This document shows, in pieces, positions 1,613 through 64,000 of a stretch of 64,000 bases of DNA. Position 1 is the first letter of the stretch; each line of letters opens with the position of its first letter. The position numbers were made by a program, and so were the translations under genes. The stretch is from Takakia lepidozioides (Eukaryota > Plantae > Bryophyta), in assembly GCA_030704615.1 (NCBI GenBank), contig CM060731.1, positions 38,626,001-38,690,000 of the forward strand, read 5' to 3'. The notes below the pieces were generated by a model. The model saw only the letters and a program-made list of their open reading frames with translations, had not been told where the DNA came from and made no database searches.

Positions 1613-1614
1613 TT

Positions 1615-1626: not shown

Positions 1627-1667
1627 TTAGAGTTCAGTACGCGATCGTCCTTGGGATCGGCCTCATC

Positions 1668-22200: not shown

Positions 22201-25200
22201 CGTTTTGCAAGTGGAACTGCGATTTAACCCCCATTCTCAAGTCTGCATCACGCACTTTGCCAGCTCATCCTTCCGGCAAGCCTTCCGGATCTTCCTTTGG
22301 AGCGCCGTCTCGCCCTTGTACACCAACAAGAGCTGCTGCTTTCTACTTAAAGCATCGGCCACCACATTGTCCCGTCCCGGTTTGTACTGGATATCCACGT
22401 CGAACACTGCCAAAGTATCTTGCCACCTAAGTTGTTTTGGGGACAACTTGGGCTGCGTGGCAAAATACTTCACCGTGACATTGTCCGTGAACACCTTCAC
22501 TGGGTTGGAACCAACATAGTGGCGCCAGAGTTCAAGGCAATACCACCGCCTTCATCTCTTTTTCGTGCGTCGGCCACCGTCGCTCCACTTCATTCAGTTT
22601 CTTTCTTACTTTCGTAAGCCACTGGACGTCCATCTTGCATAAGTACACCCCCAATTGCGAAGTCCGATGCATCTGTATGAATCTCAAACGGACGATCGAA
22701 CTCCGGGATTTTTAAGACTGGAGCTTCCGTCATCCGCTGCTTCAATTCAGCAAAAGCTTGGCCACAAAATGTGTTCCATACCCAGACTTTGGATTTACAC
22801 AGAAGGTCCGACAGCGGCCCCGCGATCTTGGCGAAATTTCTCACATACTTCCGGTAATAGGAGGCGAGTCCTAGGAAGGATCGCACTCCCGGGACCGAAG
22901 TCGGAGGCTCCCAGTCCAAGATCGCCCTCACCTTTCTGTCATCCATTTTGATCCCATCCTGTGTAATCACGTGCCCCAAGAACTCCACTTTTGTGACCCC
23001 GAATTCGCACTTTGAAGCTTTGGCATACAGCTTCCCTTCTCGCAATTTTTGGAACACCCTTTTGAGGTGCTCCAGGTGCTCCTCCTTTGTTTTCGAGTAC
23101 ACCAAGATGTCGTCGATGTACACGATCACAAAGTCATCCAACCACTCCTGGAAAAGGCTGTTCATCAGCGTGCTAATGTCGCTGGTGCATTGGTGAGCCC
23201 AAAAGGCATCACCAAGAACTCATATGAACCATACCTTGTCCTGCACGCGTCTTCTCCTCATCTCCTTCCGCCACCCGAATTTGGTGATAGCCGGAGCGCA
23301 AGTCGATCCGGCTGAAATACTTCGCTCCTGCCAACCGATCGAAGAGGTCGTCGATCCTTGGCAAAGGGTACCGGTTTTTGATAGTCACCTTATTCAGAGC
23401 CCTGTAATCGACACACATCCGCAGCGTCCCATCCTTCTTGTCTGCAAATAGCACCGGGGCTCCGTAAGGTGACTTACTCGGCCGGATGTACCCCTTTGAC
23501 ATTAGATCTTTGAGCTGAGTCTTCAGCTCGACCAACTCTTTGTGGCTCAACCGGTAGGGCGCCTTGGCAGGCGGTTCCGATCCCGGTATCACCTCAATTT
23601 TGTGGTCAACTCCTCTTCGCGGTGGCAAGCCGCTTGGTAAATCCTCCGGCATCACATCCTGGTATTTCTCCAAAATCCCCTTGATCCAATCTGGGCTCGG
23701 CTCCCCATCGCCTTCTCCTTTCACTTCTCTAATGTAAAGCAAAAACTGGGACTCGTGTGTCTCCTCCACGGCCCACTCCTTTGCTGATAGAAGGTTTATT
23801 CGCCCTCCCACGGATTTGGGCGTTTCCGACACTCGTAAAACCTCGCCACCATTCCCACATGGCAGCGTGACTACTCTCTTGCGGCCATCTATGACCGCTC
23901 CGGATTTGCTCAAAAGGTCATTCCCAAAATGAGATCCACTCCATCGATCTCGCAGATAGTGAAGTTCTCACGTCCCTCCCAACTCCCCAGTTGAAGAGGA
24001 ACATCAAACGCCAACCTTGTCGCCAACTGAGGTTCTCCTTTGGCAGAGCGCACCTCAATAGAGGCCCCCACGTCACTTGTCGGGAGTCCCAACTTTCGCG
24101 CCGCCGCCGGCGTCATGAAGGAGTGCGACGCTCCTGTGTCCACCAACAACGACACATTAGTTCCGGATATTATCCCATCCACGAACAATAACTGACTCCC
24201 TTTTCGTAAGGCGCAGTTTCCTGATACAACTCACAAGAAAATTTGCCTACCTTGCAAGTCCTGGCGACCACCGCTTCCACCAAGCGACTGATGGTATCTT
24301 CCGACAGCTCCGTGGTCGCCCGAGTCATGTTCAATTGCCGGGGCTTCGTGCACTTCTTGGCCATGTGCCCGGGCTCCCCGCAATTGAAACACACTCCATC
24401 AAAGGTCGCCTTCTGTCCGCCATAAGCTCCACCGCTTTTCCTTTCGAAGCACCGGGTGCCGCCTTGACGTGTGAAGGACCTCCCTTCGATTTCCACGTGC
24501 CATTTTCGCCGCGTGGCCTATCCCACTTTTCCGGTCGGGAGGAGTCACCTTCCCGCCGGGTCTTCTTGTGGTTCAGCTCCGTACGGCCTTGTCTCTCACC
24601 CCTAGGGACATCCGAGAAACATTCAGCTCTCTCAATTGCCTCGTTCAAAGTCTTGGGTGGCTTCTCCTCCAACTTCCGCCTAGCCCATGGGGCCAGTCCC
24701 GCCACAAAGTTGAAGACCATTTCTGGTTCTGCCATGTCCGCGACTTCGAGCAACAGCACATTGAAAGCCTGGACATACCCCCGAATGTCATCTGTTTGCT
24801 TCAAATTCCTCATCTTGTCCCGGGCAAGCCAGGATGCGTTGAGGGGCACAACTGTCTCTTCATCAATTCCTTGAACTCACTCCAGTTCAAGGTTTCCGGG
24901 CTTGGGCCTCGGTCGTGAAGGCGTTTCTGCCACCATTGTTGAGCATTAGCCCCTCAAATAGGTGGGAGCCACTTCCACCCGATCCTCGTCACTCAACTTG
25001 GCCGCCCGGAAGTACTGCTCTAGCTCCAGGAGCCAGGTGTTGAGTGCCTTCCGGTTTCGAACGCCCTCGAAGGTGCCGGGTTCCTTAGGCTTCACCTTAA
25101 ACTTTGCCTTGGTGGAAGTGGCATTAGCCGCCTTCAACACGTCTTTCAACGTCCCGCCAAACTGCGCCAACAACCCTTCCCAAAAGGCTGCCGGCATGGG

Positions 25201-26181
25201 AGGCATCTCTTGGTTTGTCGGAGCTCTCAAAGATTCCTCGGGCTCCGACTCCTCGGATTCCTCCCGCTCCTGAGCGGCCTCGTTTTCGGAAACATTAATC
25301 GCTTCCTCAAACGGCCGCCTCGGTGACACGTCGCCCCCATCGGGCTCACCGGGATCATCATCTTTTGGGCCGTTCCGCTTTCGCTTCGGCTTGCCCGACC
25401 CCATGATGAGGCCAATCCCAAGGACGATCGCGTACTGAACTCTAAGCTCTGATACCAAGTGTCGCGCACCTCACTTCGGTAAGCTCCCCTTCAAGTCATA
25501 GTTACTCGCTTTGATGCGCGCGCCTGACTCCCAACCTGGCCGCCGGCCAACTTGGAGCTTCGGCTGCTCACCGGGACATAACGGTCCCCTTCGCTTCCCT
25601 CTAAACCCTCCACCTATTTGGGACTAGGAGAATTCCCTTTGGTAGATGGCAGTCCGGAACAGCTCCCCACTCTTTGGTCGCTTTCCGGCTCGCTCGCTTA
25701 CTCACTAGTTTTTGGTCACCAACGGGCTTGCACCGTTCTCGGGGTTACTACTCCCTATATATACTTCTGTAGCTGTCCGCGGGGGTTTCATAACCAGCCA
25801 TGCCATTTTATGGCGAACCACCACGAAAACCCTCGACTCCCGGTGGTGAGTCGCGGTGAGTCTTGGCCCACTCACCGCGGCCCCAATGGACCGTGATGAG
25901 TCCCAAGACTCCCCACGACTCCCACCTCGAGGTCTCCACCCCATGGTGAGTCCTATGCCACCCCCACTAAGTCCCACTAAGCTACCACCACCCCTTGTGG
26001 AGCCACCTCCACCGCAACCCGGTGTGCGGGGCTCCACCTAGTGAGCGCCTCCGCCTCCTTGAGTGCCTTGGGCACTCAAGGGTGCTTCAGCCCCCCATAC
26101 CTATCGCTGCCGCTGCCCCCACCACAGGGGCAGCCCCTCATGTGTCCCGACCCCCTGCCCTCAAGGCAAAGGGCCGCGACA
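19231..26181 (-). mobile_element. Complete inverted family-A element (LTRs 19231-19949 and 25460-26181) with 5-bp TSD CATCG
   Basis: Reverse complement of 11610-18548. CATCG at 19226-19230 and 26182-26186. The host 3' UTR continues across the insertion. Confidence 0.95.
20854..25404 (-). CDS. Family-A gag-pol copy 4 (frameshifted in this assembly)
   Basis: Minus-strand ORFs carry gag, PR, RT, RH, IN and chromodomain motifs. Confidence 0.87.
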
Positions 26182-26208
26182 CATCGACTCCCTGTTGGTA
26201 GGGGTATG

Positions 26209-46529: not shown

Positions 46530-49073
46530 TACAAGTAGCTTATCAGCAGCTACACAAATGCTTGTCCAAAGAATATTCTCCTCAGAGACAACTCGCATTT
46601 GAACTTACTGCTGGTGTCAGGAAGCCTAAATTTGGAGACCTTCACACATTACGCATGTGAAAAAACAGTCGGACAATATATCACCCAGCCTGAACTACGG
46701 TCCAGTGAGGTAAATATCTGTGGGCTAGCTATGAGATGATTATGCAAGTCTGCTGTGTCTTTCAATTATTTTCATTTGAATGTCAGATGACGTAATTTAT
46801 GTCAAGAGGCACAGGTTTTCATCTTTTGAAATTTGGTCTTCAAATCTGATCACAGACTTAACAGATTAATTACACATTTTCTGCAGAATACTGAACTTTC
46901 AGGAATCCTAACCTGTGAGACCCATGGACATGTGCTGGCATAATGTTTGTGTGAGAGAGAGAGAAAGAGAGAGAGATGAGAACATCACTATAGTTAGCTT
47001 GCTATGGGCTTGTGGCCTTCGACTTTACACAGCCCAGAGCAGAGATGATGATATCTCATTGTTTGTTCCCTGGGAAGGAGATGCATTTGAGGGCATTGTC
47101 CACATGGGATACTTAACCATCTGTAAGTTGTGGTGGAGTTCTATGAGCCAGAACTTGCCATAGCTTGGACATAGTTGGAGATTTGTTCTCTAGATTTTGC
47201 TTGCTGTCTCCTGGTGAGCATAGACCATGCACCCAGTTTGGTGGGAGGAGGGAAGGGTAGGAGATGGGTTTGGCAGAGGACAGCAGAATGGGGCCCACTG
47301 CTATCGCTGCCGGTGCACTGCACCAGTAAGACCTACCTGAGATTGAGTTGGTACTGGCCGACACAAAACTTATGGCTCTAGTATCAACTGGAGACGAGAG
47401 ATGACGGAGTTTCGACTGATTGGATGCCTTTGTTGGCCAGGTGTCGAACACATTCTACTTCACATGCTCACTCGACCCTGCAGCTGTGAAGGTTGGTACA
47501 TTATGTGCGCAGAGTGATGCCTGCCACTGAAGAAGAGGGGCGTGGCTTATCTTGCTCGCTACGATGCCAACCACCTGGTTAACTCTTGCTTACTTACCTA
47601 TTAAGTTTGCCAATGTATCTGTCTGTTGGAGCCTCTAGACGTCACTTTCAATCATAACCTTCAACAAGGTGGGAGGGAGGCAAAGTCACTCCTAATATCC
47701 CCACTGTGTGGAGCATATCTGAAAGGACCCTGAACTGTGAGAAATCCAAAAGGCCCTGGGACATTTTAGTTGGTTCACCATGGACACATGCTCAGTAACT
47801 GTATATCTCATAAAAGCTGAATTGGTCATAGGGTCCTCCATACCTGCTGCTAGTGGTTTGACCTGAGGTCCCCAAATGACAATGATGATGAAAGTTGAGC
47901 TCCAAGAAAATAGTTATATACAATTTGGATGCTCACACAAAACCCTGGCTAGACGACGCAAATCATCTGGCACCTCGAAATTGTGCTCTGCCAGCCATTT
48001 TCAGGTGGCAAAAATTTATGGTTTGGAATATCCTTAAAAGTGCTTAGCAGAGTACGTGATGTTTTATCAATCGTAGCTCATCCCATCAAGCAACTTTCAC
48101 TTTTCCTGATATGGAAACTAAAGTTCCATACAAATTTGTTTACGCAGTCCATAGAGGGACTGAAGGCCTCCCTGGAGTCTATCCTGCCCGTTACAGCAGT
48201 CGCCATCTTGTCGGCAACTTTTCAACGTGCTGCCATGGTCTCCTGTTTTCAGGAGTTGGACAGGCCCATTCAAAGACCTTGGCTGCCACACACAGAGAAA
48301 GAGGTGACTCCAGTTAAAGTCAACAATATCAAGAACCTCCTCCCTCCATAGAAACACTGCCCGATACTTTAAGTCACTAAAGGCCAAGTTACATGATGCA
48401 AAAAGGACCCAAGAGTGCTATGTGCGGTCTTTTTAGAAGACTCCAAACTCTTGCAGTTCAATTCTTTCTTTATGGATATGGAGGGATGGACTATTGCACT
48501 GGGCATCAAGAACTCCCTGGTACCAAAAGGCCAGCAGCAGCTAACTGGGGAGTTCCTCTACATCTACTCTAGAACCTGGTAAGCTAAGAATTTAGTTTGT
48601 GTTCTCATTGAAAGCAAATGCTGGAAGATAAGCAAATGAATTCAAGTGTAGCTAACTTCACATCTCGAAAGTTGTTGCCACAGTGAGTAATGATGTACAG
48701 GAGTTACAAGAGACTTATCAACGTGCCCAGGTATGTGCCCAATACAACTGAAGGGAGTCCAGCTTGGCGTGCTTGGACCTTAGTGACAAGTATCAAGGTT
48801 TCTACAAACTAAGCGGCTTATTAACACTTGCTGCAATTGCATTTAAACCCTGGACTACCACAGTTTGTGGATGTTGCATATGGAAAACTCAATTAGAGTT
48901 TGCGAGCTAGGCCTTCAATGTCTAACTTGTCCAGGCATAATGCCCGATGGGTGGGTGCCTTGAAGACTTGCCCACTTTCAGATACAATGTTCATGGTGTT
49001 TTCTCCATCCACCCTCTTCAGGACCACCAAGAACATAGCCCCTGCGCCTCTGTTCAGCAACTTTCGAAATCTC

Positions 49074-49429
49074 TGTCAAGTTAAATAAGCACAGTGTGAA
49101 AACAGCTAGAATAAAACTAGTTATTTGTATTTAACACTTGGAGTTAGGTCAAGTGTTAAATCAGGTGTCAAGTTTAGTTTGACACCTGGTCTATCTTATC
49201 TTCACGAGAGCGGCAGTCGTGCAGCTCATCTTTCTCGAGTTGAGCCTGCGCGACCGAGCTCCTGCATGTGTTTAGGTTTTAGTGTGCTTATGTAGGGATA
49301 CAGGTTGTTGTGGGGTGGAGTCCCCATAGCTTGGGGTGCCCCTGGCTCGACTTCAGTTTCAATGAGTGATAGCGATGGATTTTATATTTCTTGTGTTGGG
49401 AGTGTATGTCCTTTCAAGCTTCTTTATCA
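49074..49429 (+). repeat. Family-B 5' repeat A1 (3' part of the LTR, ends TTTATCA)
   Basis: Near-identical to 60625-60977: three transitions plus homopolymer indels. Confidence 0.95.
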
Positions 49430-49808
49430 CTCGAGAGAGATCAGCTCTTACCTGTGAGTGCAAGGTAGGAGTTGTGGGTTAGCACTTGCAAGATTACCTG
49501 TGTGTAAGTAGTGCTTAGTTTGAGAAGCATATCATTGAATGTGATCACAAGATTCAGCGTGCCCTGAAACGCCTGGAGGATGACGATGCCGGAGCCACCA
49601 CTGTTATTGCAGTCGCTAAAGCTACCAAGTCACCAGAGGCTTTGGAGTACACGAGGAGAGACTTAAAAATGCAGCAGCAAATGCTAGTTGGCACCTATGC
49701 GTGATCCTTGAAGCTGGATGATTGTTTCCCCAGTAAGCTTAGAGAGAAGCTCTACCGTGCAGCATGGAGCAGCGCTGGCAAGCGGTGAACGCTGATACCT
49801 GCACTCTT

Positions 49809-49895
49809 GCAGTCTTGGAGTCCAAGCTAGGACACAGGGAATATGACCGGTCAACAACCAAGGTGCTGCATTTGATCAACAATCCTGAAGTGGAG
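49809..49895 (+). pseudogene. MAD1: Captured fragment of spindle-checkpoint protein MAD1
   Basis: AVLESKLGHREYDRSTTKVLHLINNPEVE resembles the conserved MAD1 segment around the MAD2-binding motif. Confidence 0.7.
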
Positions 49896-49906
49896 GGAGA
49901 ATTGCG

Positions 49907-50248
49907 ATGGCCGCAGTAGCGCCATCTGCAGCGGAGGTGCGGGCGCTGTTGAGAGGCTTTCTCAGAGAAGCGTGAAGATTTACGCACTATAATGTGCGGG
50001 AGTACGTGAAACGGCGAAGTCGGGAAGCGTTTAAGGACAATTCCGAGCTGTCGGATCTTTCCAGCGTTGTCTCTGCTTTCAATCAGGGGAAGCAGCAGCT
50101 GGAATTGACTAGGCGGCAATCGGTTGTGTATTCGTTGTATCAACCTCGAATGACGAGTATAATGGACTTGAAGATTCGCAAGGGGGACTCGGACTCAAGG
50201 ACTCGATTCTGCTGGGAAGAAAAGGATTTTGGTCTGCAGATTGGATAG
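49907..50248 (+). pseudogene. LYRM4: Captured near full-length LYR-motif protein 4 (ISD11) with an in-frame TGA at 49973
   Basis: MAAVAPSAAEVRALLRGFLREA*RFTHYNVREYVKRRSREAF...RRQSVVYSLY..SIMD. Confidence 0.85.
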
Positions 50249-50749
50249 TCCATTCCGATTGTACATCCCGCCCGTCAAACTTGCATAATAACGTGGAAAG
50301 TTTAGGTTTCAGGCTGTCCTGTGTGCTTGATGTGAAATGGTTGAGTGGAATAGTAAAATCTCTGAGAATGTAACAGGCTCGAGACAAAGTCAAAAGCTGG
50401 ACTCTGCAGGTGAAGGGGAGTTTTCTTCTGGTTTTCTTTCATTTGGTGAGCATGCCGGGAGCGTGGAGGTGTGAGGAGTGGCAGGGCTTTCATCAGTTGC
50501 ATCTTTCTCAGCTGCTGTGTGTTTCACTAGTTGAACATCTTCGAAGCTGAATTACGGCTTAATTGGAAACCCGTACCCTGCTACTTCTGCCTATCAAGGT
50601 TATGGTGGGGGTGGATCAGGGGGGCAGGTGTTCCAGCTCCAGTTGTGTGCATATGTAACCTACCTCCCCGTAATCTCTTTTAGTTCTCCTCTAGGAGAGG
50701 TTACTTACTTGGACTGACAGGACCTGGATCAGTCTGGAAGAAAGTTTGA

Positions 50750-50970
50750 CCTGCGAATAACGTCCGTCCTTGCGATCCTTCTTCCTGTTCAAGAACCAGT
50801 CAGGTATCTTGAACTGCCGGGGATTCGCGACAATCACCATCAAGTTCTCCAGCTCCGCACCCGACAGCTCACCAGCTCTCTTGCTGGTGTCGACGTCCGC
50901 CTTCTTGCAGACCAGGTTAGCGAAACGGCGCCCCACTCCCTTGATGGAGGTCAAAGCAAACATGATCGCT
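50750..50970 (-). pseudogene. RPS18: Captured internal fragment of 40S ribosomal protein S18 (uS13), antisense to the element
   Basis: [32 protein letters not shown]...[24 protein letters not shown]; both ends of the protein are missing. Confidence 0.93.
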
Positions 50971-51697
50971 ACCTGAATTGAGATAGTGCCTTGCCCTATC
51001 GGAGTATGCAGACCTATGCTCCAAGCTTCAACTAAATGACGAAGCTGATCTGGTTACTCTCCACTTTGTGGATAGTCCAACACAGTTGCCTTTGTCAATA
51101 AGCTCCTTCACCACTTCCACATTTGACACTAGGTCCGAAGATTGTCTGAAGAGAGAGCAAGTGCAGATGGCAGCTGCCCACCAGGTTCTGACAGAGTATC
51201 ATCAGAGCTTGTCCCTGCATTAGGGATGGCTCGAGTGCTTGCATCACGGGAAATAGATGCCTGACGCTGCACAGGCCACCACCATCGCCATAGCCATCCA
51301 CCCGAGCTCGAGAGTCGTCGCTGGAGCAAAGCAGCTCACTAAGCGAGCAAGTCTGTGGTGCATCTGTAACCACAAATGAAACCCGGGAACGGTTCTTAAT
51401 GGCGGGAACGTTTTGGTGTTTAAAAAAAAAAAAAAAAAAAACTTTGATATAATTTAAATGATTTAGAGCCTGGTTGGTCATAACTTTGTCAAATGGACTC
51501 CGTTTGACTCAGTTTTTGGGTGGATAGCTGCAGAAAGGGGAAATCTACATGTCTACACCATGGTTTTTTGTTTTGGGGACTCTGCTAAAAATCTGTGGAA
51601 TTTTTAGAGTGTGAGTGTGCTATAAAAGATCCACAATTCTGTGTCCAGAATCTGTTGTGGTCTACATGAGACATAAATCTGTGGATGTACTCCATGC

Positions 51698-52446
51698 ATG
51701 GCTGGGGGAAATGAGGACGTAATTGAAGGGCAGGTCTCTTCTCTTAGCCTGTGCACACAAGGGGACAGGATCTATGTTTCCCAAGGAACTCAGACTGATT
51801 TGAGTGGAGAACAGTTGGACGAGTTGATTGCATACTGGGAGTCAGGCATTAGCAGTAGACAACAGACTGCTGTAGTTGGCATTGAGGGCCTCAATATCGC
51901 CTTGGACAGTCAGAACTCTGTTGGAGCCAGCAGTTCTGCAGCTGTAAGTGAAATACCAAAGTGGGTGAAAGCTAGGCTTGGAACACAGCCAAAGACAGCC
52001 CCGGGGACCAAGGTGTTCAGCCACAAGGCCGTGGTGTACTGGAGCAGAGGAGCAGGAGCTGCACAAGTTTGTGCAATTAGACAGTGTTGCAGTCGGACAC
52101 GCTCTGCACAAGGCAACCACGAGCGGGGTTCATTAGCGAGGACAAGTTTGTTCTGTTTGAAGGCGATCCAGTCATTCGCAATGAAGACACCCGCAACCGT
52201 CTCAAAGCTTTCGAGTTGAGAGACTATCAGACCCTACCTTTGTTTTCTTTAGTGTTCAGTGAGCGGGAGATAGCAGAGTGTTGCTTTGTCTCTACCTGGC
52301 AGAAAGAGGAGGAGGGTTGGTTAGAGCGAGCTACTGTAGCTTGGGACAAGGTTAGTGGCAGGTTTCTGGACATAGATATACCTCCTACACCTTACCATCA
52401 AGCAGAGCGAGGCACTTTGAGAGAAGTCTGGAAGTTGATAGCATAG
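51698..52446 (+). CDS. Extra ORF upstream of gag, unknown function (two overlapping frames, probably one ~250-aa ORF)
   Basis: ATG ORF of 173 aa overlaps a 120-aa ORF. Protein-like composition, but no motif recognised. Confidence 0.45.
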
Positions 52447-52959
52447 ATCAGGATTAGATCTTGCTTGGGCGGGGCTTTTATTCTTCCCCTCCATCTCTGT
52501 ACTATTTTCATTACCTTGTACTTGTAGTTGCCAAAGCCTCTCTTGGTGGAGGCCAGTCAGTCCGGGGTCTTGGGCTGGGATATTCTGCAGGATCAGCGTT
52601 GCTGCTGGATTTTGGTGTGGGGGTGTTGATGTTTTGATTTCGTGTGTTTGGATCCCCCCCAACACCTGCATGCTTGACTGTGCGCCATGTTGGTTTTGTG
52701 TGGGCGCTTGCTTTCATAGGGATTAGGCCGGATTTGATCACCGGTCAATCCTAGAGTATGCTGTCGGTGGTGAGGCTGGAGTGATGACCAGCAAGACCAC
52801 CAGTGTTTCTTCTATGGTGAGGCTGGGTTGATGACCAGCCAACCATAGGAGTTCTTGCGGTGGATGCAGGTGCAGGTGCCCTGAGCCACTGGGATATGAC
52901 CCTTAGACTGCAACAGGTGCCCACCCGTGTCACTATTAGATTAGTACTAGAGCCTTATA

Positions 52960-55809
52960 GTGTCACTGGAGGAGGTGCACATTGTGAGTGTCATTACGGA
53001 GTTACCCAAGGGTTTTGAGGGGAGTACGGCTACAGGCAGTAACAGTGAGAGTGGGTTCACAAGACGAGGTATTCGGTTCAGACCACCTTCACCGCCACCC
53101 TCAATTACTGTAGAGTCAGACACAGGCTCGGAGGCTTCATCAACAGGTGTGCACTTTCATTCGCCATTGTTGTGGGACGACATGGAGGAGATGTATGGAG
53201 CTACCAAGGGGCCTCGTAGGTACTCTGGAGCTGTGGGCACAATCGAGTTGGATGACTTTATCCAGGAGTTCGACAGCTGGTGTGATTTGCAGCAGATGCG
53301 CAATCCACATCTATTCACCCCATTCATGGCATGGAAGGGACTGTTCCAGCATTTGGAAGGCCCGCCTATGGACGATTACCACGAGTTCAGGCGAGGACAT
53401 GAAGCAGAGATTGAGGAGTGGAGGATGTATTGGTCACCTGACTACATCTCCATTACTCGAGGCATGACGCGACCAGTAGCTGCATCAGTACCAATAGCTC
53501 CCACTGCCAGCACTAGTAGTGGAGCAGGTAGTGCTGGTACTTCTGCCGGTGGTACCAGTTCAGAAGGTGCTACTACTCCTCCTGCCACAGCTACAACACA
53601 TGTGCCTAGATTCAACCCGGTGGTGGAGTTCTTCCAGGAGTTGCGGAGGAACTACCAAGGTGTACGGACAGAGAAGCTGCGAAGTTTGCAAGACTTCCAG
53701 CGCAAACCCAGTGAGAGCCTGCGAGAGGCGTACACTCGTATGAGGCGCTTGATAAGTGTGACCCAAGGGGTTACTGAAGCTCAGGCAATCCAGTTTTGGT
53801 ATGGAATTCTGGACAAGGAGCTCAAGAGAAGGGTGCGAGATGCAACCCTGTTACAAGCAGCCCAACCCACATTAGCAGATGTGTTTCTGCTGGCTGAGCG
53901 GATTGAGCTCAACATGGTGGAGGAACGAGTTGTTACAATTGGATTTGGCAAGGACATGCCTGTACGGGGCACAGCTGTCAGCCCACAAGCACAAGGGACT
54001 GCCCAACAGCGTGGTCAGGGGGGCAAGGTTGCCCAGCCCAAGTTCCATGGAGCTTACAGGGGACCTCAGGTGCAGAGGCCCGTGGCATCTTTTGCAGGCC
54101 AACAGCAACCAGGGGTGATATGTTGGACATGTGGAGGACCCCATGTCAAGAGAGATTGCCCAGAGAGTGGCAGAAGGCCGGCACAAGCACAGCCTGCACA
54201 GTTGCAGTGTGGGCATTGTGGCAAGTATGGGCATGGAGATGCCCAGTGTTATGACTTGCATCCTGAGTTGCGCCCAGGCCAGTTCCAAGGGAACAATGGT
54301 GGCCGGGGGCGAGGTGGACCAGCCCAAAGAGGACGAGGTGGTCGGGCACGAGGTGCAGGCCAAGGGCAACCTCCACATGGCCAAGGACGCGGAGGTCAGG
54401 GTGTTGACCAAGGCATGGCCAATCGGCTTCAGCAGCTAGAGCAGAGGCTCGCTGCCATGGCTATAGCTCAGGCGGTACCGGCTCCCAGGCGGGATGGCCC
54501 ACCTCCTGCTCCTGAGGGAGGAGATATGGGAGGAATGGGATTCATGTGCGGAGCAGCACTACCATTAGAGCAGGTGGAGTCTGCTGCAGCCGTGACTCGA
54601 GGAGCAACACGAGTTCCTGAGCCACGAGGTGCAGAGGTGGAGTTGGATCCACAACGTGGGGAGGCAAGCCGTCAGGCAAGGCTGCCTCAGTCATTCACCT
54701 TGGCGGAGACAGTGTCAACGCCATCCATGGCACCTAGTTCTCGCCCGACTGTTACCGAGGCGGAGGTTACTATGCCATTGGGGAGAGCTACACGTGCAGC
54801 ACTGACACCTGCTACCAAGGCTAGTGCAGCCGGTGTGTTATTGGGAGCAGCCACCTCTGTGTGTCAAGCCCCACTGTTCTCGGCAACCATGATTGCGACG
54901 CCGGGGGTGAGGCCAGCTGCAGTGTTCAGACTAGCAGCAACACTCTGTGAGAGTGGGGAGGTCACTTCATCTTCTGCGGAGTTAGTGGAAGGTGTAGTGG
55001 CAGAGGGATCCTCGGATTTGAGGGTCAAGACTGCCACGGCTGCGCCCTGGCAAGCTGCAGCTGCCAGGTTGACGGAGCTGCCAGCTAGGCCAGCCTTTGA
55101 GCGCGCCATGGTGACACCTGGAGTTGTCTTGTTAGACAACCAGGGAGGCATTTTCACTTTGAGTGGACCGGCAGGCAAGAAGTACCGGCCACTGCGGGTC
55201 TTGTTGGACTCAGGAGCTCAGCCACTGATGTTGGGCAGAGCTGCTATTGCAGGTTTGGGCCTCATGGAGGCGGATATGGAGCCTTGTCCTTTCCAGATAC
55301 AGACATCTCTGGGAGGATCAGAGCAGGCTCGCGGCATGACACGGCATCAGTTGGCTATTAGACTGCAGCCGGATCATCCTGTAGATGGCTCAGTGATGCG
55401 AGCCAAGGCCATTGTGACAGACGCGGTCTCTTACGATGTCCTCGTTGGTGGGGCAGTGTTATACCCCATGGGCTTCACCCTGGATTTCTGGGAGGAGTCA
55501 GCATCCTACAGGCCTGGATGGCAGTCAGGGGATGGTCGCCGTGCACAGCTCCCTGTGACATTCATTGGGGGTATTGCAGCTGCTCAGCGGGGCAAGATGC
55601 CAACACTAGCCGCCTTCACAGCTGCAGTCAGCTGGCCTGGAGAGTTGCTGGAAGGCAATGCCCATGCAGAGGATGTGCCACCTCCAGCAGAGCAGGTGAC
55701 ATGCATGGTACGGCGGAGTTGCCTGCCATGGTTGCTCACACTCCGTTGTGGGGTACGAGCAAGGATTTGCAGCACGCTGCTGATGGACGGGTGCAACAAG
55801 CTTGGGTAG
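52960..55809 (+). CDS. Family-B gag-protease (true start uncertain)
   Basis: 949-codon ORF. QRKPSESLREAY capsid motif; knuckles CWTCGGPHVKRDC and CGHCGKYGHGDAQC; RGG-rich tract; protease LLDSGA at ~55207. Confidence 0.9.
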   Translation: MSLEEVHIVSVITELPKGFEGSTATGSNSESGFTRRGIRFRPPSPPPSITVESDTGSEASSTGVHFHSPLLWDDMEEMYGATKGPRRYSGAVGTIELDDFIQEFDSWCDLQQMRNPHLFTPFMAWKGLFQHLEGPPMDDYHEFRRGHEAEIEEWRMYWSPDYISITRGMTRPVAASVPIAPTASTSSGAGSAGTSAGGTSSEGATTPPATATTHVPRFNPVVEFFQELRRNYQGVRTEKLRSLQDFQRKPSESLREAYTRMRRLISVTQGVTEAQAIQFWYGILDKELKRRVRDATLLQAAQPTLADVFLLAERIELNMVEERVVTIGFGKDMPVRGTAVSPQAQGTAQQRGQGGKVAQPKFHGAYRGPQVQRPVASFAGQQQPGVICWTCGGPHVKRDCPESGRRPAQAQPAQLQCGHCGKYGHGDAQCYDLHPELRPGQFQGNNGGRGRGGPAQRGRGGRARGAGQGQPPHGQGRGGQGVDQGMANRLQQLEQRLAAMAIAQAVPAPRRDGPPPAPEGGDMGGMGFMCGAALPLEQVESAAAVTRGATRVPEPRGAEVELDPQRGEASRQARLPQSFTLAETVSTPSMAPSSRPTVTEAEVTMPLGRATRAALTPATKASAAGVLLGAATSVCQAPLFSATMIATPGVRPAAVFRLAATLCESGEVTSSSAELVEGVVAEGSSDLRVKTATAAPWQAAAARLTELPARPAFERAMVTPGVVLLDNQGGIFTLSGPAGKKYRPLRVLLDSGAQPLMLGRAAIAGLGLMEADMEPCPFQIQTSLGGSEQARGMTRHQLAIRLQPDHPVDGSVMRAKAIVTDAVSYDVLVGGAVLYPMGFTLDFWEESASYRPGWQSGDGRRAQLPVTFIGGIAAAQRGKMPTLAAFTAAVSWPGELLEGNAHAEDVPPPAEQVTCMVRRSCLPWLLTLRCGVRARICSTLLMDGCNKLG

Positions 55810-55911
55810 AAGCTTTTGTACCGTCAGGAGAGGAGGAGAATGCGGTGATTGTACCAGGGCCACCTCATTGTCGCCATTGGACACACACCTCTTGTGTGGC
55901 AGCGACCGGAT

Positions 55912-56856
55912 GAAGGCATATGCCTTCTGGACTTATTTGGCGGGATCAGCACTGGATTGGCTGCAGTGCTGCAGGCAGGTGTACGAGTTCGACGTTACCT
56001 GTATGTGGAGAGGGATGAGACTGCACGACGTCTCACTGCTGCGCCATGTTGCTCAGATGGTGCAGCAGCATACCCTGAGTTGTTGCCGGTGTCTGCAGTT
56101 CGTGGATACAGCAGGCCTTGCCAGCAGACATTGCGTTGCTGGGGGCGCAGGATTTGGAGCGGGTTGGCTCCATTGATCTGGTAGTGGCAGGTTGGCCCTG
56201 CCAAGGGCATTCATCAGCCGGGCATGGCAATGGATTGCGAGACTCGAGGACGGGTCTGTTTTGGGAGATGGTGCGGATTTTGCGCCACTTGCAGCTTCAT
56301 CAGGCTGTATCTCCGGCATACATCTTGGAGAATGTGCCACTGATGGGTGATTCTCGGGCCAGGGTGATGGCCAGTGTGCATCAAGTCCGGTCGTGGCTTG
56401 GGTCAGCAGTATTGCTGGATGCAGCTGCAGTGGGGTCACGGGCTCATCGTCCACGACTATGGTGGACTAACTTGATGCCACCCGCACTGCTCAAGCGTGC
56501 ATTTGATGGGGTGCAGCGGCCAGCACACCTCACCGTGGATGGCATTTTGGACACGGGAAGGCAGTCTCAACGTGTGAGACACGATGACCGTTCGCCTTTG
56601 GCAGTGGTCAACAGAGTGGGTCAACCACGAGCAGCATTACCTACACTGCTCAGCTTCCCAGGATCCCATGCTTTTCGGGATGGTGGACCTGGCCTCCTGT
56701 GGGATGCTCAGTTGCAGCAGTTAGTGGAGCCTAATGCCGACGAGCGAGAGCGGGCTATCCACTGGGACCACGGCGGTGCCTTCCCTTTCTGAGGCATCAC
56801 GTCGTCAGGTGTTGGGGCAAGCAATGGATCTCAATTGCTTGACCTGGATTGTCAGC
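55912..56856 (+). CDS. DNMT3-like C5-cytosine methyltransferase domain inside pol (frameshifted in this assembly)
   Basis: Motif I LDLFGGIS, IV AGWPCQG, VI ILENV, VIII AHRPRLWWTNL, IX ERERA, X RRQVLGQAM, all in canonical order. Confidence 0.92.
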
Positions 56857-57249
56857 TTGGCTATGGCTGAGCAACGTAGAGTGCGGAGTGCACTTCCCTT
56901 GATGGTCTCTCTGCCTACCGAGACGGTACAGGCAGCGAGTGGGGGCGAGCCGGTGAGGACCACGAGGTGTAGACATCCATGGCACATGTGGGAGGTGCTC
57001 GAGGTTCAGAGGGAGTTGGCAGCGAAGGCAGCTGTGATGGATGAGGTTGGGGATTCTTCTCGGGATGAGGAGGTTCTCAATGATGAGATGATGGGGCAGG
57101 ATGAGGCCTTGTCATTGACTGAGCAGGAAGGGGGTACTGCTCAAGAGGTTGCAGCATAGCAACCACGGGACGCGTCCTCTACCTCTAAGCCCACTGGACT
57201 TAAGGTTGCAGTTACGGAGGACAATTGGGAGCCTGATATTGGACCCATT

Positions 57250-58660
57250 GTCACCGGAGGAGAGAGACGACGTATACGGCGGTTCCTGAGGGCTTACAGG
57301 AATTGCTTTGCCTTCAGTTTGAAGGACTTGGGAGCACTGAAGGGTCAAGAGATCCGTATTGAGTTGGCCACTGACACGCCAATCTTTCGGAGACCCTATA
57401 GATACAGTGACATGGAGAGGTCTTTGATTCAGATGAGGACTCAAGATCTCTGGGAGGCAGGTTTGGTGGAGCTCTCTGGTGGAGAGTATGCTTCAGCCAC
57501 AGTGATGCCAGCTAAGAAGGATGTCTATGGCAATTGGACGGAGAGACGTATGTGCGGTGATTACCGGCCTGTAAATCGTCAGACCAAGTCCGATAGGTAT
57601 GCCATGCCAACACCAGAGGAGATCTTTGATGCCATTGGGCATTCCAAGGTCTTTAGCACGTTTGGATTTACGATCCGGATATCACCAGTTGCCGATCAAG
57701 GAGGCGGATAAGCAAAAGACGGCATTCTGGGGGATCAATGAGCACGGGAAGGATTGCCTATACCAGTGGCGATTCTTACCATTTGGGCTTAAAAACGCTC
57801 CCGCTGAGTTTCAAAGAGTCATGGACAGGATTCTAGCAGGGGTGGAGTTTGCTCGGTGCTACATAGATGACATCATCATCTTTAGTGCTGCGGTGGAGGA
57901 GCATGAGAGACACCTTCAGGGGGTATTTGAGCGCTTGAGGACGCACGGATTGAAGTTACATCCGGGCAAGTGCAAGTTTTTCCACAACCAGATTGAGTAC
58001 CTGGGTCACATGATATATCCTGGAGGATTGGGGGTACAACAGACTAAGGTAGAGTCCATTGCACAGGTTCCACGTCCCACGGATGTGAGCCGAGTTCGAG
58101 CTTTCATGGGGTTAGCAAACTATTACAGACGGTTTGTTAAGGGATTTAGTGCCATTGCAAAGGCTCTAACCAAGCTGACCAAGGTGGACCAGGAGTGGCA
58201 GTGGGAAGATGAGCAAGAACAAGCTTTTCAAGAGCTCAAGGCGAGGTTGACCTCGGCGCCCATCTTGAGACGACCTATCAGGGGGCGTCCCTTTCAGCTG
58301 CATACAGATTGGAGCATGCTGGGGCTTGGAGCGGTGCTCACACAGGTGGATGATGAGGGAAGAGAGTTCGTAGTGGCTTATGCTAGTCGCTCGAACAATG
58401 CTGCAGAGTCTAGTATAGCTCATATGAGGGAGAATGCTTAGCTGCAGTGTGGGCCGTGGCTCACTTCAGGTGCTATTTATACGGCAATCTCTTCACCCTT
58501 GTCACGGATCACCAACCACTCAAGTGGTTGATGGAGTCAGACAAGCTTACGGGGAAGCTTGCACGGTGGGCACTCATCCTTCAAGAGTATGACTTTCAGG
58601 TGGTGCATCGACCGGTTTGGTCAATCGAAATGCAGATGGGTTGAGTCGCAATCCATGCAC
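57250..58660 (+). CDS. Family-B reverse transcriptase and RNase H
   Basis: [32 protein letters not shown] (57860), LHTDWS, TDHQPLKWL, NADGLSR. Confidence 0.95.
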
Positions 58661-59029
58661 GAGCCAGCAGGATGACACTGGAGCTCGGTGGCATGGTGAG
58701 ACGGACGAGGAGATGGTGCCCGGATGGCATGCATCGGCATTTCTGTGTATCTTGGCAGCGGAAGGCCAGGTTGGACCTACAACAGGGATGACTGTAGATC
58801 AAGTGTCTGAGGACCCTGAGGCCAGCAATGAGCAGGTGGCGCCAAAGATATACATGAGGATTCAGTTGTGTTGGACTACCTCCGCAGTGGAGACACGGCA
58901 GCCACTTATGACTGCCAAGGAGAGGGATCGGATCCTACAACGAGCCAAGAGGTTCAGGTGGGAGGGGACACACCTGCTCCGAGTGTGGGAGGATGGTCGA
59001 GTGAGGATTGTGCCTCACCCAAACAGCGG

Positions 59030-60286
59030 GCACGGTTAGTGCGACATGCCCATGAGGAGTTGGGGCATTTTGGGGTGCGACGCACTCATAGTCTACTGCA
59101 GGGCAGTATTGGTGGCGTGGTATGCACACAGAGGTGCAACAATTTGTGGCTAGGTGCATGGTGTGTGACACGTGCTTCATTCAACGCCCCTACTCCACAA
59201 TTGCACCCTCTTCCGATCATGGGATTGGGCTACAGGTGGAGTCTTGACTTCGCAGGGCCGTTGCCACTGACCATGCGCCACAACAAGTACGTGTTGGTGA
59301 TGGTGGAGCACTTCTCCAAGTGGATTGAATTGGTTCCATTGCCTGATAAGGCTAGTGAGGGAGCTGCGTATGCATTCCTGGATTGTGTGCTTAGCCGATT
59401 CGGTGCTCCAGCTGAGGTACTCACGGACCAAGGGAGAGAGTTCTTGGGGGAGTTTCAGGCTTTGTGTGACAAGGCCTTGATAGACCACCGCACCACTTCT
59501 CGGGATCATCCTGAAGCCGATGGCTTGGCAGAGAGAGTTGTTCAGACAGTAAAGAGGGGTTTGCGCAAGTATGGCTTGCAGAAGGGACACCTAGGAGATT
59601 GGGACCTTCAGTTACCCTGGTTAGCCATGGGCTACAGGTTCAGCAAGCAAGCATCACTTGCCTCCTTCTCACCATACTTTCTTCTCTTTGGCCGAGAGCC
59701 GGATTTGCCTACATCCATTCGCAGAGAAGCTGCTACAGTTCTTAACCTTGACGATCCGGACGTGTGGGCACGTGCATGTGAGCAGCGTGCAGAGTTGTTC
59801 AAGAGAGTCATGCCCATGGCTTTCGAGAACCTTGCCATTGCACAACACCGTGATACGTTGAGGTATGCCACCATACGTGGTGGGGGCTATCGTCCTGGGG
59901 TTCGGAGACTCAACCCTGGTGACTATGTCTATCTGCAGCAGACTGCTCCTACGACCCTGGATGTGACTGCAGGACGTGTTATTTTGAGGGTTCGAGAGGT
60001 CTTGCCCTCAGGCGTCTTGGTCTTGGAGGGTCGGGATGGCATAACTTGGAAGGACCATGTGCGTAATTGTGCGCCATGTCACCTTCCGAATGTCGATGGC
60101 AGGATTGACCCAAACCTGGCAGTGGTATCTGCAGGTTTGAGGTGCATGTTGTGTGGGTCTGCTAAAGGGGCAGCCACCATGCTGGTGTGTGATCGATGCT
60201 CTAGAGGTTGGCATATGGGATGCTTGACTCCACCTCTTGAGATGGTTCCGGATGGGGATTGGTTATGTCCACAATGCATTGGATAG
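59030..60286 (+). CDS. Family-B DDE integrase with C-terminal PHD finger (60143-60277)
   Basis: HEELGH..CMVC; SLDFAGP, TDQGREF, GLAER; C4HC3 finger CMLC..VCDRC..WHMGC..WLCPQC. Confidence 0.95.
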   Translation, partial: ARLVRHAHEELGHFGVRRTHSLLQGSIGGVVCTQRCNNLWLGAWCVTRASFNAPTPQLHPLPIMGLGYRWSLDFAGPLPLTMRHNKYVLVMVEHFSKWIELVPLPDKASEGAAYAFLDCVLSRFGAPAEVLTDQGREFLGEFQALCDKALIDHRTTSRDHPEADGLAERVVQTVKRGLRKYGLQKGHLGDWDLQLPWLAMGYRFSKQASLASFSPYFLLFGREPDLPTSIRREAATVLNLDDPDVWARACEQRAELFKRVMPMAFENLAIAQHRDTLRYATIRGGGYRPGVRRLNPGDYVYLQQTAPTTLDVTAGRVILRVREVLPSGVLVLEGRDGITWKDHVRNCAPCHLPNVDGRIDPNLAVVSAGLRCMLCGSAKGAATMLVCDRCSRGWHMGCLTPPLEMVPDGDWLCPQCIG

Positions 60287-60530
60287 TGGGAGTGGATACA
60301 ACCATGGAAGGCTAACAAGCAACGCAAGGCCCAGCTACAGGATACCTTGAACACACGAAGGCCTGGCTCAAGTTCACAGATTGCAAGACGGCGACTAACG
60401 ATGGGGCTACTCTTGTACCCGGCCTCTTGGTCTATAGAGTTTGAGTACGATAGGGACAGTGATAGAGGACTTAGTACGGCTATGGCTATTACGTCTTGTA
60501 GCTATCTGGAGGTAGAGGGACCTATCCACC

Positions 60531-60545
60531 AGCTAGGGGGGCGAT
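60531..60545 (+). promoter_or_regulatory. Polypurine tract of family B
   Basis: AGCTAGGGGGGCGAT directly before TGTGG, the LTR start. Confidence 0.75.
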
Positions 60546-60977
60546 TGTGGTAGACTACTTTATTGTGCATATATGTGTGGTGTGGTTCGAACAGCGATGT
60601 AGTTGTGTAGTGATATGTATGCGCTGTCAAGTTAAATAAGCACAGTGTGAAAACAGCTAGAATAAAACTAGTTATTTGTATTTAACACTTGGAGTTAGGT
60701 CAAGTGTTAAATCAGGTGTCAAGTTTAGTTTGACACCTGGTCTGTCTTATCTTCACGAGAGCGGCAGTCGCGCAGCTCATCTCTCTCGAGTTGAGCCTGC
60801 GCGACCGAGCTCCTGCATGTGTTAGGTTTTAGTGTGCTTATGTAGGATACAGGTTGTTGTGGGGTGGAGTCCCCATAGCTTGGGGTGCCCCTGGCTCGAC
60901 TTCAGTTTCAATGAGTGATAGCGATGGATTTTATATTTCTTGTGTTGGGAGTGTATGTCCTTTCAAGCTTCTTTATC
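60546..60977 (+). repeat. Full family-B 3' LTR (B1 + A2), followed by a second LTR start B2 (60981-61059)
   Basis: Starts with TG after the PPT. A2 matches A1. The 79-bp B is repeated with two transitions. Confidence 0.9.
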
Positions 60978-61729
60978 TATTGTGGTAGACTACTTTATTG
61001 TGCATATATGTGTGGTGTGGTTCGGACAGCGATGTAGTTGTGTAGCGATATGTATGCGCATGACAGCTCGAAGCTGACCACCTCGATGGAATCTCCCTCC
61101 AGATATTTCATTAAAGATCCGAGGACATATGGGCAGTTTCAGTAAAAGGGCAAGGTCATTGGATGGCCTCGTAGGCCTTTAGGGGTGAATCAACCAAGAG
61201 ACTGAATGAAGGATTCATCCTTTCATCACTTGTACAAGTAGCTTATCAGCAGCTACACAAATGCTGTCTTAGAATTTTATTTCAGAGACAACTTGCATGT
61301 GAGCTTACTGCTGGTGTCATGATGCCTAAATTTGGAGACCTTCACACACTGCGCATGTGAAGAAACAGTCGGACAAGGATGCAAGGCTGCACAAACATGT
61401 CAGCCTGCAATTACCTCGCGTTGCAAAGTGGAATCAACCAGTGGCTACAAATACTCTTCAACAGCTGGTGAAGCAGCAATTCTAGCTTTGTTGAGATATG
61501 CCTCATTGTTTGGCTCTCTGTCCTCCAACCTTCACAAAAGCACCACATCAACCCAACCTCAAAGGTTAGCAACAAAGAGCCTGCCTGACACTAGCACAAG
61601 CTTCCTACCTTAGCAATTTGCTTGACCAATAGATCCATCAAGATGGTTGCCATTAGAGTGTCAAGGTTGAGGACTTGGGATCCTACAAGGCATGTCCTTG
61701 CCGAGAGGTCAGAACCACTCTAGACACCA

Positions 61730-63430
61730 AAGAAAACATACATGTCCACAAGGGTATTGTTAGGAATCATATTTGGTACAATTTCGCCTTTCACAATGTC
61801 AGCATGGACCTCTTTGCCCTTTTGCAGAGCTGCCAAGCTGGAACACGCATTGCAAACGCAAACAAATGTGATCTGGTCTCACCCCTTCTGTCGCGGCCCT
61901 TTGCCTCGAGGGCAGGGGGGTCGGGACACAAGAGGGGCTGCCCCTGTGGTGGGGGTAGTGGCAGCGATAGGTATGGGGGGCTGAAGCACCCTTGAGTGCC
62001 CAAAGCACTCAAAGAGGCGGAGGCGCTCACTAGGTGGAGCCCCGCACACCGGGTCGTGGTGGGGGTGGCTCCACAAGGGGTGGTGGTAGCTTAGCGGGAC
62101 TTAGTGGGGGTGGCATAGGACTGACCTTGGGGCGGAGACCTCGTGGTGGGAGTCGTGGGGAGTCTTGGGACTCGTCACGGTCCATAGGGGCCGTGGTGGA
62201 TGGGCCAAGACTCACCGCGACTCATCACCGGGAGTCGAGGGTGTTCGTGGTGGTTCGCCATAAAATAGCATGGTTGTTTGTGAAACCCCCGCGGACAGCT
62301 ACAGAAGTATATATAGGGAGTAGTAACCCCGAGAACGGTGCAAGCCCGTTGGTGACCGAAAACTAGTGAGTAAGCGAGCGAGCCGGAAAGCGACCAAAGA
62401 GTGGGGAGCTGTTCCGGACTGCCAACTACCAAAGGGAATTCCGTTGGTTCCAAATCGTTGGAGGGTTCTTTGGGAGATCAAAAGGGGGACCGTTATGCCC
62501 CGGTGAGCAGCCGAAGCTCCAAGTTGGCCCGGCGGCCAGGTTGGGAGTTAGGCGCGCATCAAGCGAGTAACTATGACATTTGGTACAATTCCAGCTCTCA
62601 TGATGTCACCATGAACCTCTTTGCCTTTTCCCAGGTCTGCCAGGCTTGCACACACATTGCACATACACACGGACGTGATGTGGTTGGGCTTCACCCCTTT
62701 GCAGATCATTTGCTCATAGGTCTCCAAAGCCTCCATCCAACAACCAAGCTGGGCATATACTGCGATCATCGCACTCCAGGACACCACATCCCGTTCAGCC
62801 ATATGGTCAAATATTCCCATTGCATCCTTGATGCTCCCACATTTGGTATACATATCTATGAGGGTAGTTTCCAAGATGATATTTGGTACAATTCCAGCTT
62901 TCCTGATATCACAATGGACCTCTTTACCCTTCTCTAGGGCTGTCAGATTCGCACACACACTGCAAATGCAAACAAACGTGACCTGGTTGAGTGTCCAACC
63001 TTCCAGGATCATTTGCTCATAGGTCTCCAAAGCCTCCCTCACACACCGATGTTGGGCATATCCTACTATCACTGCATTCGCGCATCATCTGCTCATATGT
63101 CTCCAAGGCATTCTTACCACACCCATGCTTGGCAAGTCCTGCAATCATTATGTTCCACGAGATCAAACCTCGTTGAGGCATTTTGTCGAACACTTGGTGT
63201 GCATCCACAATGCTCTTGCATTTGACATACATGTTGACAAGGGTGTTGTGTAGAAACACATTTGGCTTGAATCCACTTTGGATAATGTGAGCGTGCACCT
63301 TCTTTCCAGCTGTTAGGTCTTTCATCTTCATGCTCTTATGCAGGAGACAGACAGAAGTATATGAACATTGTGCTGAAATACCTCCTTGGTTCAAAGTTTG
63401 CAGAGCCTCTTTCAGTTGTCCTGCCTCACT
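61730..63430 (-). pseudogene. PLS-class pentatricopeptide repeat gene, frameshifted and interrupted by a solo LTR
   Basis: NTLVNMYVKC..DAHQVFDKM..ISWNIMI; TTLIDMYTKCGSIKDA..RDVVSWSAMI; TFVC..AC..L..GKEVH repeats on both sides of the LTR. Confidence 0.9.
61889..62577 (+). mobile_element. Family-A solo LTR lacking the last ~35 bp
   Basis: TGTCGCGG start, collinear with LTR7 up to CTATGAC, then PPR sequence. Confidence 0.93.
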
Positions 63431-63842: not shown

Positions 63843-64000
63843 TTAGAGCCAAATTGGTCATATCTTTGTCAAATGGGCTCTGTTTGACTCAATTTTTGAG
63901 GGGATAGCTGCAGGAAGGGAAAATCTACCTATCTAGACCCAGTGAGAGCCTGCGAGAGGCGTACACTCGTATGAGGCACTTGATAAGTGTGACCCAAGGG
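63843..64000 (+). mobile_element. Internally deleted family-B derivative (continues past the window end)
   Basis: 63843-63939 resembles 51463-51559 and is joined directly to gag sequence 53707-53769. Confidence 0.8.

Follow-up and report, generated by a model that had tools for sequence, protein, structure and literature searches.

The window analysed here is a stretch of 64,000 nucleotides (nt) of DNA from Takakia lepidozioides (contig CM060731.1, positions 38,626,001 to 38,690,000). At positions 49074-61065 it holds a retrotransposon with the coding content of a Ty3/gypsy element, whose end repeats were found by blastn and a repeat search of the whole window to be arranged as A...B-A-B. The two copies of A (49074-49430 and 60625-60977) are 98.6% identical over 355 nt (E 3e-177) and the two copies of B (60544-60624 and 60979-61059) are 97.5% identical over 81 nt (E 9e-36), with no further copies of either repeat elsewhere in the window by the same searches. 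Point changes and an 8-nt deletion distinguish the members of these pairs, and A1 is not preceded by a B. Direct reading of the sequence places the 5' terminus TGTCA at 49074-49078 and the 3' terminus TGACA at 61061-61065, which B2 reaches by exceeding B1 by 6 nt (ATGACA). A2 ends in CTTTATC at 60977 and is separated from the beginning of B2 by a single additional T.

The coding region was examined by a Pfam scan of all 72 stop-to-stop open reading frames (ORFs) of at least 65 amino acids on both strands of 49000-61100. The domains follow the order gag, DNMT3-like methylase, reverse transcriptase (RT), RNase H and DDE integrase with a PHD finger, which is the order of Ty3/gypsy elements apart from the additional domains, and the RT_RNaseH_2 and RT_RNaseH matches also fit this group. 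The gag match to Retrotrans_gag lies under the Pfam cut-off, and CCHC knuckles and a DSG protease motif were spotted by eye in the translation of the same ORF. The methylase domain sits between the gag/protease region and the RT, and its nearest solved structures are DNMT3A and DNMT3B (E 1e-5). Integrase_H2C2 was also matched in the integrase region, where the catalytic D, D and E residues, with D-35-E spacing, are present by eye in the translation. A match to the tyrosine recombinase domain Phage_integrase (PF00589) at E <=0.05 was obtained for none of the 72 ORFs. The coding region is split over several frames and the window copy is therefore degenerate. An earlier reading of this DNA from its letters only (the sequence-only reading) had described the same layout and span, the TGTCA and TGACA ends, a polypurine tract before B that defines the long terminal repeat (LTR) as B+A, and the absence of a visible recombinase. 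Each of these descriptions agrees with the results above and with the priming marks reported below. The features are collected in Table 1.

Table 1. Positions of the element, its repeats, domains and flanks in the window
Feature	Position	Strand	Basis or remark
Left 4-bp flank TCTC, candidate target-site duplication	49070..49073	.	3/4 match with GCTC at 61066-61069
A1, 5' repeat, starts TGTCA; probably comprises part of U3 followed by R and U5	49074..49428	+	98.6% identical to A2
Primer-binding-like site ACTCGAGAGAGAT	49429..49441	+	Complementary to mid-A
Low-copy leader insert, atypical for the family	49662..51477 (approximate limits)	.	Contig depth bins
Complex1_LYR host gene fragment (LYR-motif)	49976..50245	+	PF05347, E 9e-8
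Host ribosomal protein S18/uS13 gene fragment	50694..51053	-	PF00416, E 1e-22
gag ORF with protease-like region	52951..55809	+	Weak Retrotrans_gag match, E 0.004; CCHC and DSG by eye
C5 cytosine DNA methyltransferase domain, DNMT3-like	56079..56792	+	PF00145, E 1.5e-13
Reverse transcriptase and RNase H, two frames	57575..58641	+	RVT_1 E 5e-29, RT_RNaseH_2 E 4e-21, RT_RNaseH E 1.5e-20
Integrase (H2C2 zinc finger, DDE core) with C-terminal PHD finger	58832..60286	+	rve E 4e-14, PHD E 5e-11
Polypurine tract AGGGGGGCG	60535..60543	+	Directly 5' of B1
B1, start of the U3 defined by reverse transcription; 3' end without the TGACA half-site here	60544..60624	+	blastn, sequence reading, contigs
A2	60625..60977	+	blastn, repeat search
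Segment ATCTCTCTCGAGT, complementary to the post-A1 site; predicted RNA 5' end (start of R)	60779..60791	+	
One additional T between A2 and B2 (U5 end joined to U3 start)	60978..60978	+	
B2, ending with terminus TGACA (61061-61065)	60979..61065	+	Family contig depth extends to 61068, then zero
Right 4-bp flank GCTC, candidate target-site duplication	61066..61069	.	

The end layout in related loci

Relatives of the integrase are numerous. A total of 386 proteins were retained at E <=0.001 among 7,998 candidates scored, and the named ones come from liverworts (Calypogeia, Marchantia and Riccia), Sphagnum, Klebsormidium nitens and green algae, with Calypogeia and Marchantia giving the best named matches; judged by these relatives alone, the host would most likely be a liverwort. 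In pairwise matches the window integrase shares about 52% identity with three K. nitens proteins. Viral contigs gave no locus with the integrase as query.

The layout was followed in 70 metagenome-contig loci found with the integrase as query (28-69% identity). Self-comparison revealed a short direct repeat of 47-105 nt, the B pair, whose copies lie 276-450 nt apart and which starts about 250 nt past the integrase. Among the 55 loci with 900 nt or more of downstream DNA, 28 show the order B-A-B directly behind the integrase, and clustering of the flanks reduced these loci to 14 distinct sites (L024 may be the same site as L022/L023). The upstream A1 could be located in four distinct relatives, namely L002/L025/L026, which are one insertion, L043, L039/L040 and L013/L055. 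In none of the four does a B precede A1, and none has A-B-A at its 5' side. The sequence-only reading had proposed that the termini of family copies be compared; the comparison was made among relatives from metagenomes, and it found no normal B.A 5' end in the four. Two identical bounding LTRs, as expected of a Ty3/gypsy element, are present neither in the window copy nor in the relatives. Taken over these loci, A...B-A-B appears to be the normal end layout of the family and not a one-off arrangement.

The methylase is a recurrent component of these elements. A DNMT match was obtained in 24 of the 70 loci, and in 23 of these its place is between gag and RT; in the other, L009, the methylase is found between RT and integrase, the integrase is 42% identical to that of the window and no B pair was detected. 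Some further observations concern the edges of the repeats. In L013/L055 the DNA past the single B translates by eye to a ..GAIDGTHI..-like stretch, which may resemble PIF/Harbinger-type transposases. The last ~20 nt of A hold a conserved ..GCAAGTGAGT.. in L002, L012, L022, L034, L043 and other relatives, and this motif looks like a 5' splice site. In the window, GTGAGT and GTAGG occur soon after A1 (49453-49470).

Priming marks, joints and termini

The marks of reverse transcription delimit a repeat that differs from the unit bounded by the element termini. The polypurine tract AGGGGGGCG adjoins B1 in the window, and a homologous motif (..ccccaaatagggggg..) was observed directly 5' of B1 in 13 of the 15 loci displayed, with tagtaggag in its place in L018 and L056. 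At the other end of the element, A2 positions 155-167 have their exact reverse complement in the 13 nt that directly follow A1, a complementarity that was reached in 0 of 300 shuffles. At the equivalent place, starting right after A1, L026 has 11 complementary nt (0/300 shuffles) and L002 has 13 (1/300), while the complementarity in L043 is weak. Primer sites for tRNA normally start with TGG, and no TGG-type site was found after A1. The minus strand is therefore likely to be self-primed in the manner of Tf1, by the 5' end of the element's own RNA, and with such priming the RNA would begin midway through A. Since the polypurine tract precedes B1 and the primer site follows A1, the repeat in terms of reverse transcription is B.A, in which U3 would consist of B and about the first 150 nt of A, and R-U5 of the remainder of A. 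An LTR of the form A.B with a stray duplicate B1 was considered and rejected, because the polypurine tract lies before B1 and not before A2, and the primer-like site is directly after A1.

The joints between the repeats were compared in the same loci and in assembled Logan contigs of four runs from one sample labelled with the window's organism, over 48300-61900. Integrated elements were observed to start with TGTCA(AG) and to end with (T/C)GACA, and in most loci the (T/C)GACA of B2 is followed by unrelated DNA. In L002 and L025/L026 the B1>A2 joint is TGACA-AT-TGTCA, a perfect 12-nt palindrome, and older relatives have decayed joints that by eye are in register with it (TGATA-AT-TGTCA, TAATA-GC-TGTCA and CAATA-GT-TGTCA). 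The contigs give the same picture in the window's organism. Past 61059 the family sequence continues through ATGACAGCT to 61068, where contig depth falls to zero, and in 25, 11 and 6 contigs of X1, X3 and X4, respectively, B continues ...GCGCATGACAGCT and then GTCAAGTT, the start of A. Spacer variants are also present among the contig joints at B>A. From the contigs that run from B into A, the B>A joint of the family is TGACA-GC-TGTCA, and the outer ends of the window element are its two halves. The inner B1>A2 joint of the window copy (60620-60629) lacks 8 nt, ATGACAGC, that are seen at this joint in other copies. This stretch has GC on either side, and its loss likely reflects a later slip between the two GC dinucleotides.

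The A2>B2 joint is of another kind. In the window it reads CTTTATC-T-ATTGTGG, and in another subfamily it reads CTTTATC-ATTGTGG (contig joint 60896>60544), which is exactly the end of U5 followed by the start of U3. In the window genome this joint is therefore within 0-1 nt of the end of U5 plus the start of U3.

Target-site duplications were sought in the 4 nt directly outside TG...CA, with L039/L040 excluded because the 5' end could not be resolved. The flanks of L002 (CATA/CATA) and of L043 (CATA/CATA, with the 5' boundary set in register with A2) match at 4/4 positions, and L026, which is the same insertion as L002, has CATA/CATG (3/4). Two perfect matches among four resolved insertions, where chance would give one in 256 for each, are far above expectation and point to staggered DDE-type integration at the outer ends. 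A 5-bp duplication composed of TGTCA and TGACA was rejected since both are conserved termini, and a 3-bp duplication with a 1-nt offset was dropped for the simpler 4-bp reading given L002 and L043.

Candidate routes of integration

We propose that the window element is a degenerate copy of a very abundant Ty3/gypsy-type family in which A...B-A-B is normal and in which joined B.A repeats are opened by the integrase at a palindrome; we hold this proposal to be about as probable as all other explanations taken together. Reverse transcription would yield B.A-internal-B.A, and the end of U5 would be joined to the start of U3 to give a 2-LTR circle or an equivalent LTR-LTR joint, which is the A2>B2 joint. 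Integrase would then open the head-to-tail B.A pair at the TGACA-NN-TGTCA palindrome inside the repeat. The palindrome cut would be that of the LTR beside the primer site, supplying both integrase ends, and A-internal-B.A-B would be inserted with a 4-bp target duplication. After insertion, the window copy would have lost 8 nt of the inner palindrome and gained several frame breaks, and it carries a leader with host gene fragments. Only the cut beside the primer site keeps U3-R downstream of the polypurine tract and the element replication-competent, so that the other permutation would go unseen. More tentatively, and with rather less confidence than in the proposal for this family, we suggest that for a whole streptophyte lineage with DDE integrases, found in Klebsormidium as well as in liverworts and mosses, circular or LTR-LTR-joined complementary DNA (cDNA) is an obligatory intermediate of integration, with the integrase recognising the palindromic abutted ends inside each LTR.

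A number of observations weigh against opening of a joined repeat pair. All the steps after reverse transcription, a circular or joined cDNA included, are inferred. Simple opening of a circle predicts the permutation A-B-A-internal-B about equally often, and it was found in 0 of the four distinct complete relatives, so selection must be invoked for its absence. In a blind scan for the 12-nt palindrome in 15 relatives only L002 stood out (6/6); the other 14 loci scored 3-5/6, no different from random places, because the inner TGACA half has decayed in old copies, and the in-register reading of these joints was made by eye. Of 22 distinct sites, 8 have only one B at the end, which breaks off at ...GACA with unrelated DNA beyond it; B1 and B2 may have recombined at these sites, or a minimal A-internal-B unit may have been inserted. 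The flanks of the window copy (TCTC/GCTC) match at only 3/4 positions and those of L013 (GGTA/TGTT) at 2/4. The two perfect duplications both read CATA, in unrelated flanks and at two sites only, which may reflect a target preference. Furthermore, the additional T at the A>B joint seems uniform, as no insertion or deletion reached a share of at least 5% in the contigs, and a 'GG' at this joint is common to several relatives although it does not stand beside their polypurine tracts. The uniform T and the common 'GG' fit a templated joint better than fresh end-joining in each cycle.

Such a templated joint is the basis of a route like that of DIRS and PAT elements, which we regard as possible but doubtful. 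Here transcription would cover almost the full element, with the A2>B2 joint included; template jumps across B1>A2 would supply the ends that are missing and close a circular cDNA, and the DDE integrase, taking the role of a tyrosine recombinase, would open it at the new B2|A1 palindrome. The identity of the layout with that of PAT and Ngaro, the inherited appearance of the A>B joint, with its uniform T and a 'GG' shared by diverged relatives, and an inner B>A joint that consists of exactly the two termini abutted all agree with this route. However, the polypurine tract before B1 and the self-complementary primer site after A1 are those of ordinary LTR-type strand transfers and not of copying B2, a Ty3/gypsy RT has no known mechanism for such jumps, and the circle would hold two identical palindromes, so that the choice of the cut site is still a problem. 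The sequence-only reading had preferred a single event, in which an otherwise normal LTR element formed a 2-LTR circle that broke open within one LTR and reached the chromosome through about 5 bp of microhomology between TGTCA and TGACA. The resemblance of the A>B joint to a 2-LTR circle joint, the lack of a perfect flank duplication in the window copy and the direct LTR-LTR joint of a second, unrelated family in the window, which indicates that such joints do enter the genome, are in keeping with it. We nevertheless find a single event hardly credible, because the same layout and break point recur at 14 distinct related sites, a normal 5' B.A was seen in none of the four relatives with A1 and a K. 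nitens element is likewise described in a figure legend with this layout (PMC5890265). TGTCA and TGACA had been taken for microhomology or a target common to both ends; in the relatives they are the conserved ends of the element and form a palindrome where B meets A, and the family sequence in the window's organism runs through ATGACAGCT into A. The empty site predicted to contain TG(A/T)CA should instead read ...GAAA-[T/G]CTC-GAAG... (TTTCGAAA-(T/G)CTC-GAAGCTG). The lack of a clean target-site duplication had also been put forward; it is partly right for the window copy, whose flanks match at 3/4 positions. What the sequence-only reading had offered as its fallback, a family-wide layout pointing to an unusual integration route, is the part that the 14 sites and the K. 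nitens relative favour.

Two further explanations were weighed. A tyrosine recombinase might act in trans, for example from true DIRS or PAT elements of the host, so that the layout would owe nothing to the integrase of the element. In the literature searched, split direct repeats are otherwise known only from tyrosine-recombinase elements (PMC8557442), which speaks for this idea. We still judge it very unlikely, since the element encodes no such recombinase, its integrase is conserved across hundreds of relatives (the 386 proteins above), the catalytic residues are present by eye in the window copy, and the TG...CA termini with 4-bp duplications in two relatives are marks of DDE integration. 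An assembly artefact, by which a normal B.A 5' LTR was mis-joined or the 3' end falsely extended, is consistent with the state of the outer junctions in the contigs: one contig enters A1 from the 5' flank by 27 nt, below the 31-nt bridging rule, contig cover is nil at 61074-61115 and, in a further contig comparison, at 61074-61130, and both outer junctions are those of the assembly. A joint skipping from 49073 to 61066, as an empty site would give, was not among the contig joints listed, and neither flank recurs elsewhere in the window. An artefact is nonetheless highly improbable given that the layout recurs in independent assemblies of relatives and, as a figure legend has it, in a published genome (PMC5890265), and that the differences between A1 and A2 and between B1 and B2 are not those of repeats collapsed or copied by an assembler.

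Genomic context and relation to known systems

In the window's organism the contigs clearly show a very high abundance of the family. Over pol, their summed depth amounts to 3e5-1.3e6 in X1, about four orders of magnitude above the ~71-87 of unique-flank contigs; summed depth is not a copy number, and the contigs give no proportions of junction types for the source genome. The leader stretch at 49662-51477 has a summed depth of only 650-4300, with single contigs at 6-15 times the flank depth, and other copies match the first 14 nt after A and then diverge (loose contig end at 60977). The low depth and the differing leaders elsewhere place the window copy in a small subfamily with host gene fragments in its leader, and this subfamily, carrying the LYR and S18/uS13 fragments, seems to have spread. 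Downstream of the element, 97 nt at 63843-63939 are 86% identical to 51463-51559, where the high-copy part restarts, and are probably a fragment of a related copy.

The window also contains an unrelated Ty3/gypsy chromovirus at 1-27540, with gag, CCHC, RT, RNase H, integrase and, at 16490-16939, a chromodomain. LTR and internal region alternate in a tandem array whose period is ~5.35-6.2 kb. The LTR has the core TGTCGCG...CGCGACA and is followed by TGGTATCAGAGC, presumably a primer site of the initiator-Met tRNA type. At 18548|18549 two of these LTRs stand directly head to tail (..GCGCGACA|TGGCTAG..). An inverted chromovirus copy (19231-26180) is nested in the second of the joined LTRs. CATCG stands at either end of it (19226-19230 and ~26182-26186), apparently as a target duplication of 5 bp.

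The element combines properties of groups that are usually kept apart. With Ty3/gypsy elements (Metaviridae) it shares the order gag-protease-RT-RNase H-integrase, a DDE integrase, TG...CA ends that carry short inverted repeats, a polypurine tract and, as far as the two relatives with perfect flanks show, a short target duplication; unlike them, it lacks two identical LTRs and a tRNA-type primer site, has its integrase-type ends inside the reverse-transcription repeat, and carries the methylase and PHD finger as extra domains. With PAT-like, Ngaro and DIRS elements it shares the split direct repeats A1-internal-B1-A2-B2 and an inner B1>A2 joint made of the abutted element ends. It differs from them in that a DDE integrase bearing H2C2 and PHD fingers takes the place of a tyrosine recombinase, and in having TG...CA termini, 4-bp duplications in relatives, and a polypurine tract and primer site in LTR position. 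The closest parallel in priming is found in Tf1/sushi, which are self-priming Ty3/gypsy elements of fungi and vertebrates. The 11-13 nt after U5 that are complementary to a segment of the 5' repeat, a possible RNA 5' end, resemble their arrangement, whereas the weak complementarity in L043 and the host range do not. Abutted ends as integration substrates are known from IS3/IS911-type inverted repeats, and retroviral integrases cleave the palindromic 2-LTR circle joint. In the window family, too, two ends abut across a 2-nt spacer as a palindrome, at which a DDE enzyme could cut, with the difference that this family carries its abutted ends permanently within every LTR.

The nearest described element is KnitGypsy-Dnmt3 of Klebsormidium nitens, a Gypsy pol with an internal Dnmt3-like methylase (de Mendoza et al. 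2018, Nat Commun 9:1341, PMC5890265). The legend of Fig. 4c in that paper states that its repeat structure is 'the same as that of a DIRS retrotransposon', with Gypsy domains. The two elements are thus alike in the methylase within Gypsy pol and in the DIRS-like A-coding-B-A-B repeats, whereas the main-text account of the K. nitens element does not describe termini, palindrome, target duplication, priming or integration route (PMC5890265). A 2026 preprint mentions 'streptophytes (Gypsy-DNMT3)' in passing. In the literature searched no treatment of the integration of such elements was found: queries combining split repeats and integrase returned only tyrosine-recombinase papers and PMC5890265, and the name KnitGypsy occurred in no other paper searched. 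This kind of element is therefore already in print for a charophyte, at least as a figure legend gives it (PMC5890265), and the window element is a further member, from a bryophyte. What is new is that the termini abut as a palindrome, that a 4-bp duplication is seen (perfect in two relatives), that the polypurine tract is conserved, that the element is likely to prime itself and that the family is so abundant.

LTR retrotransposons are commonly classed by their ends, with identical LTRs taken to indicate a DDE integrase and split direct repeats a tyrosine recombinase, and this lineage breaks that rule. Finders that require two identical LTRs will miss or mis-call such elements in bryophyte and charophyte genomes. 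The details of the ends turn a figure-legend remark of 2018 into a testable model, in which an integrase inserts permuted, joined cDNA. If the more tentative suggestion for the whole streptophyte lineage is true, its elements would represent, among eukaryotic retroelements, the equivalent of the copy-out/paste-in circle junction of bacteria, and they would provide a natural case of the long-discarded view of the circle as an integration precursor.

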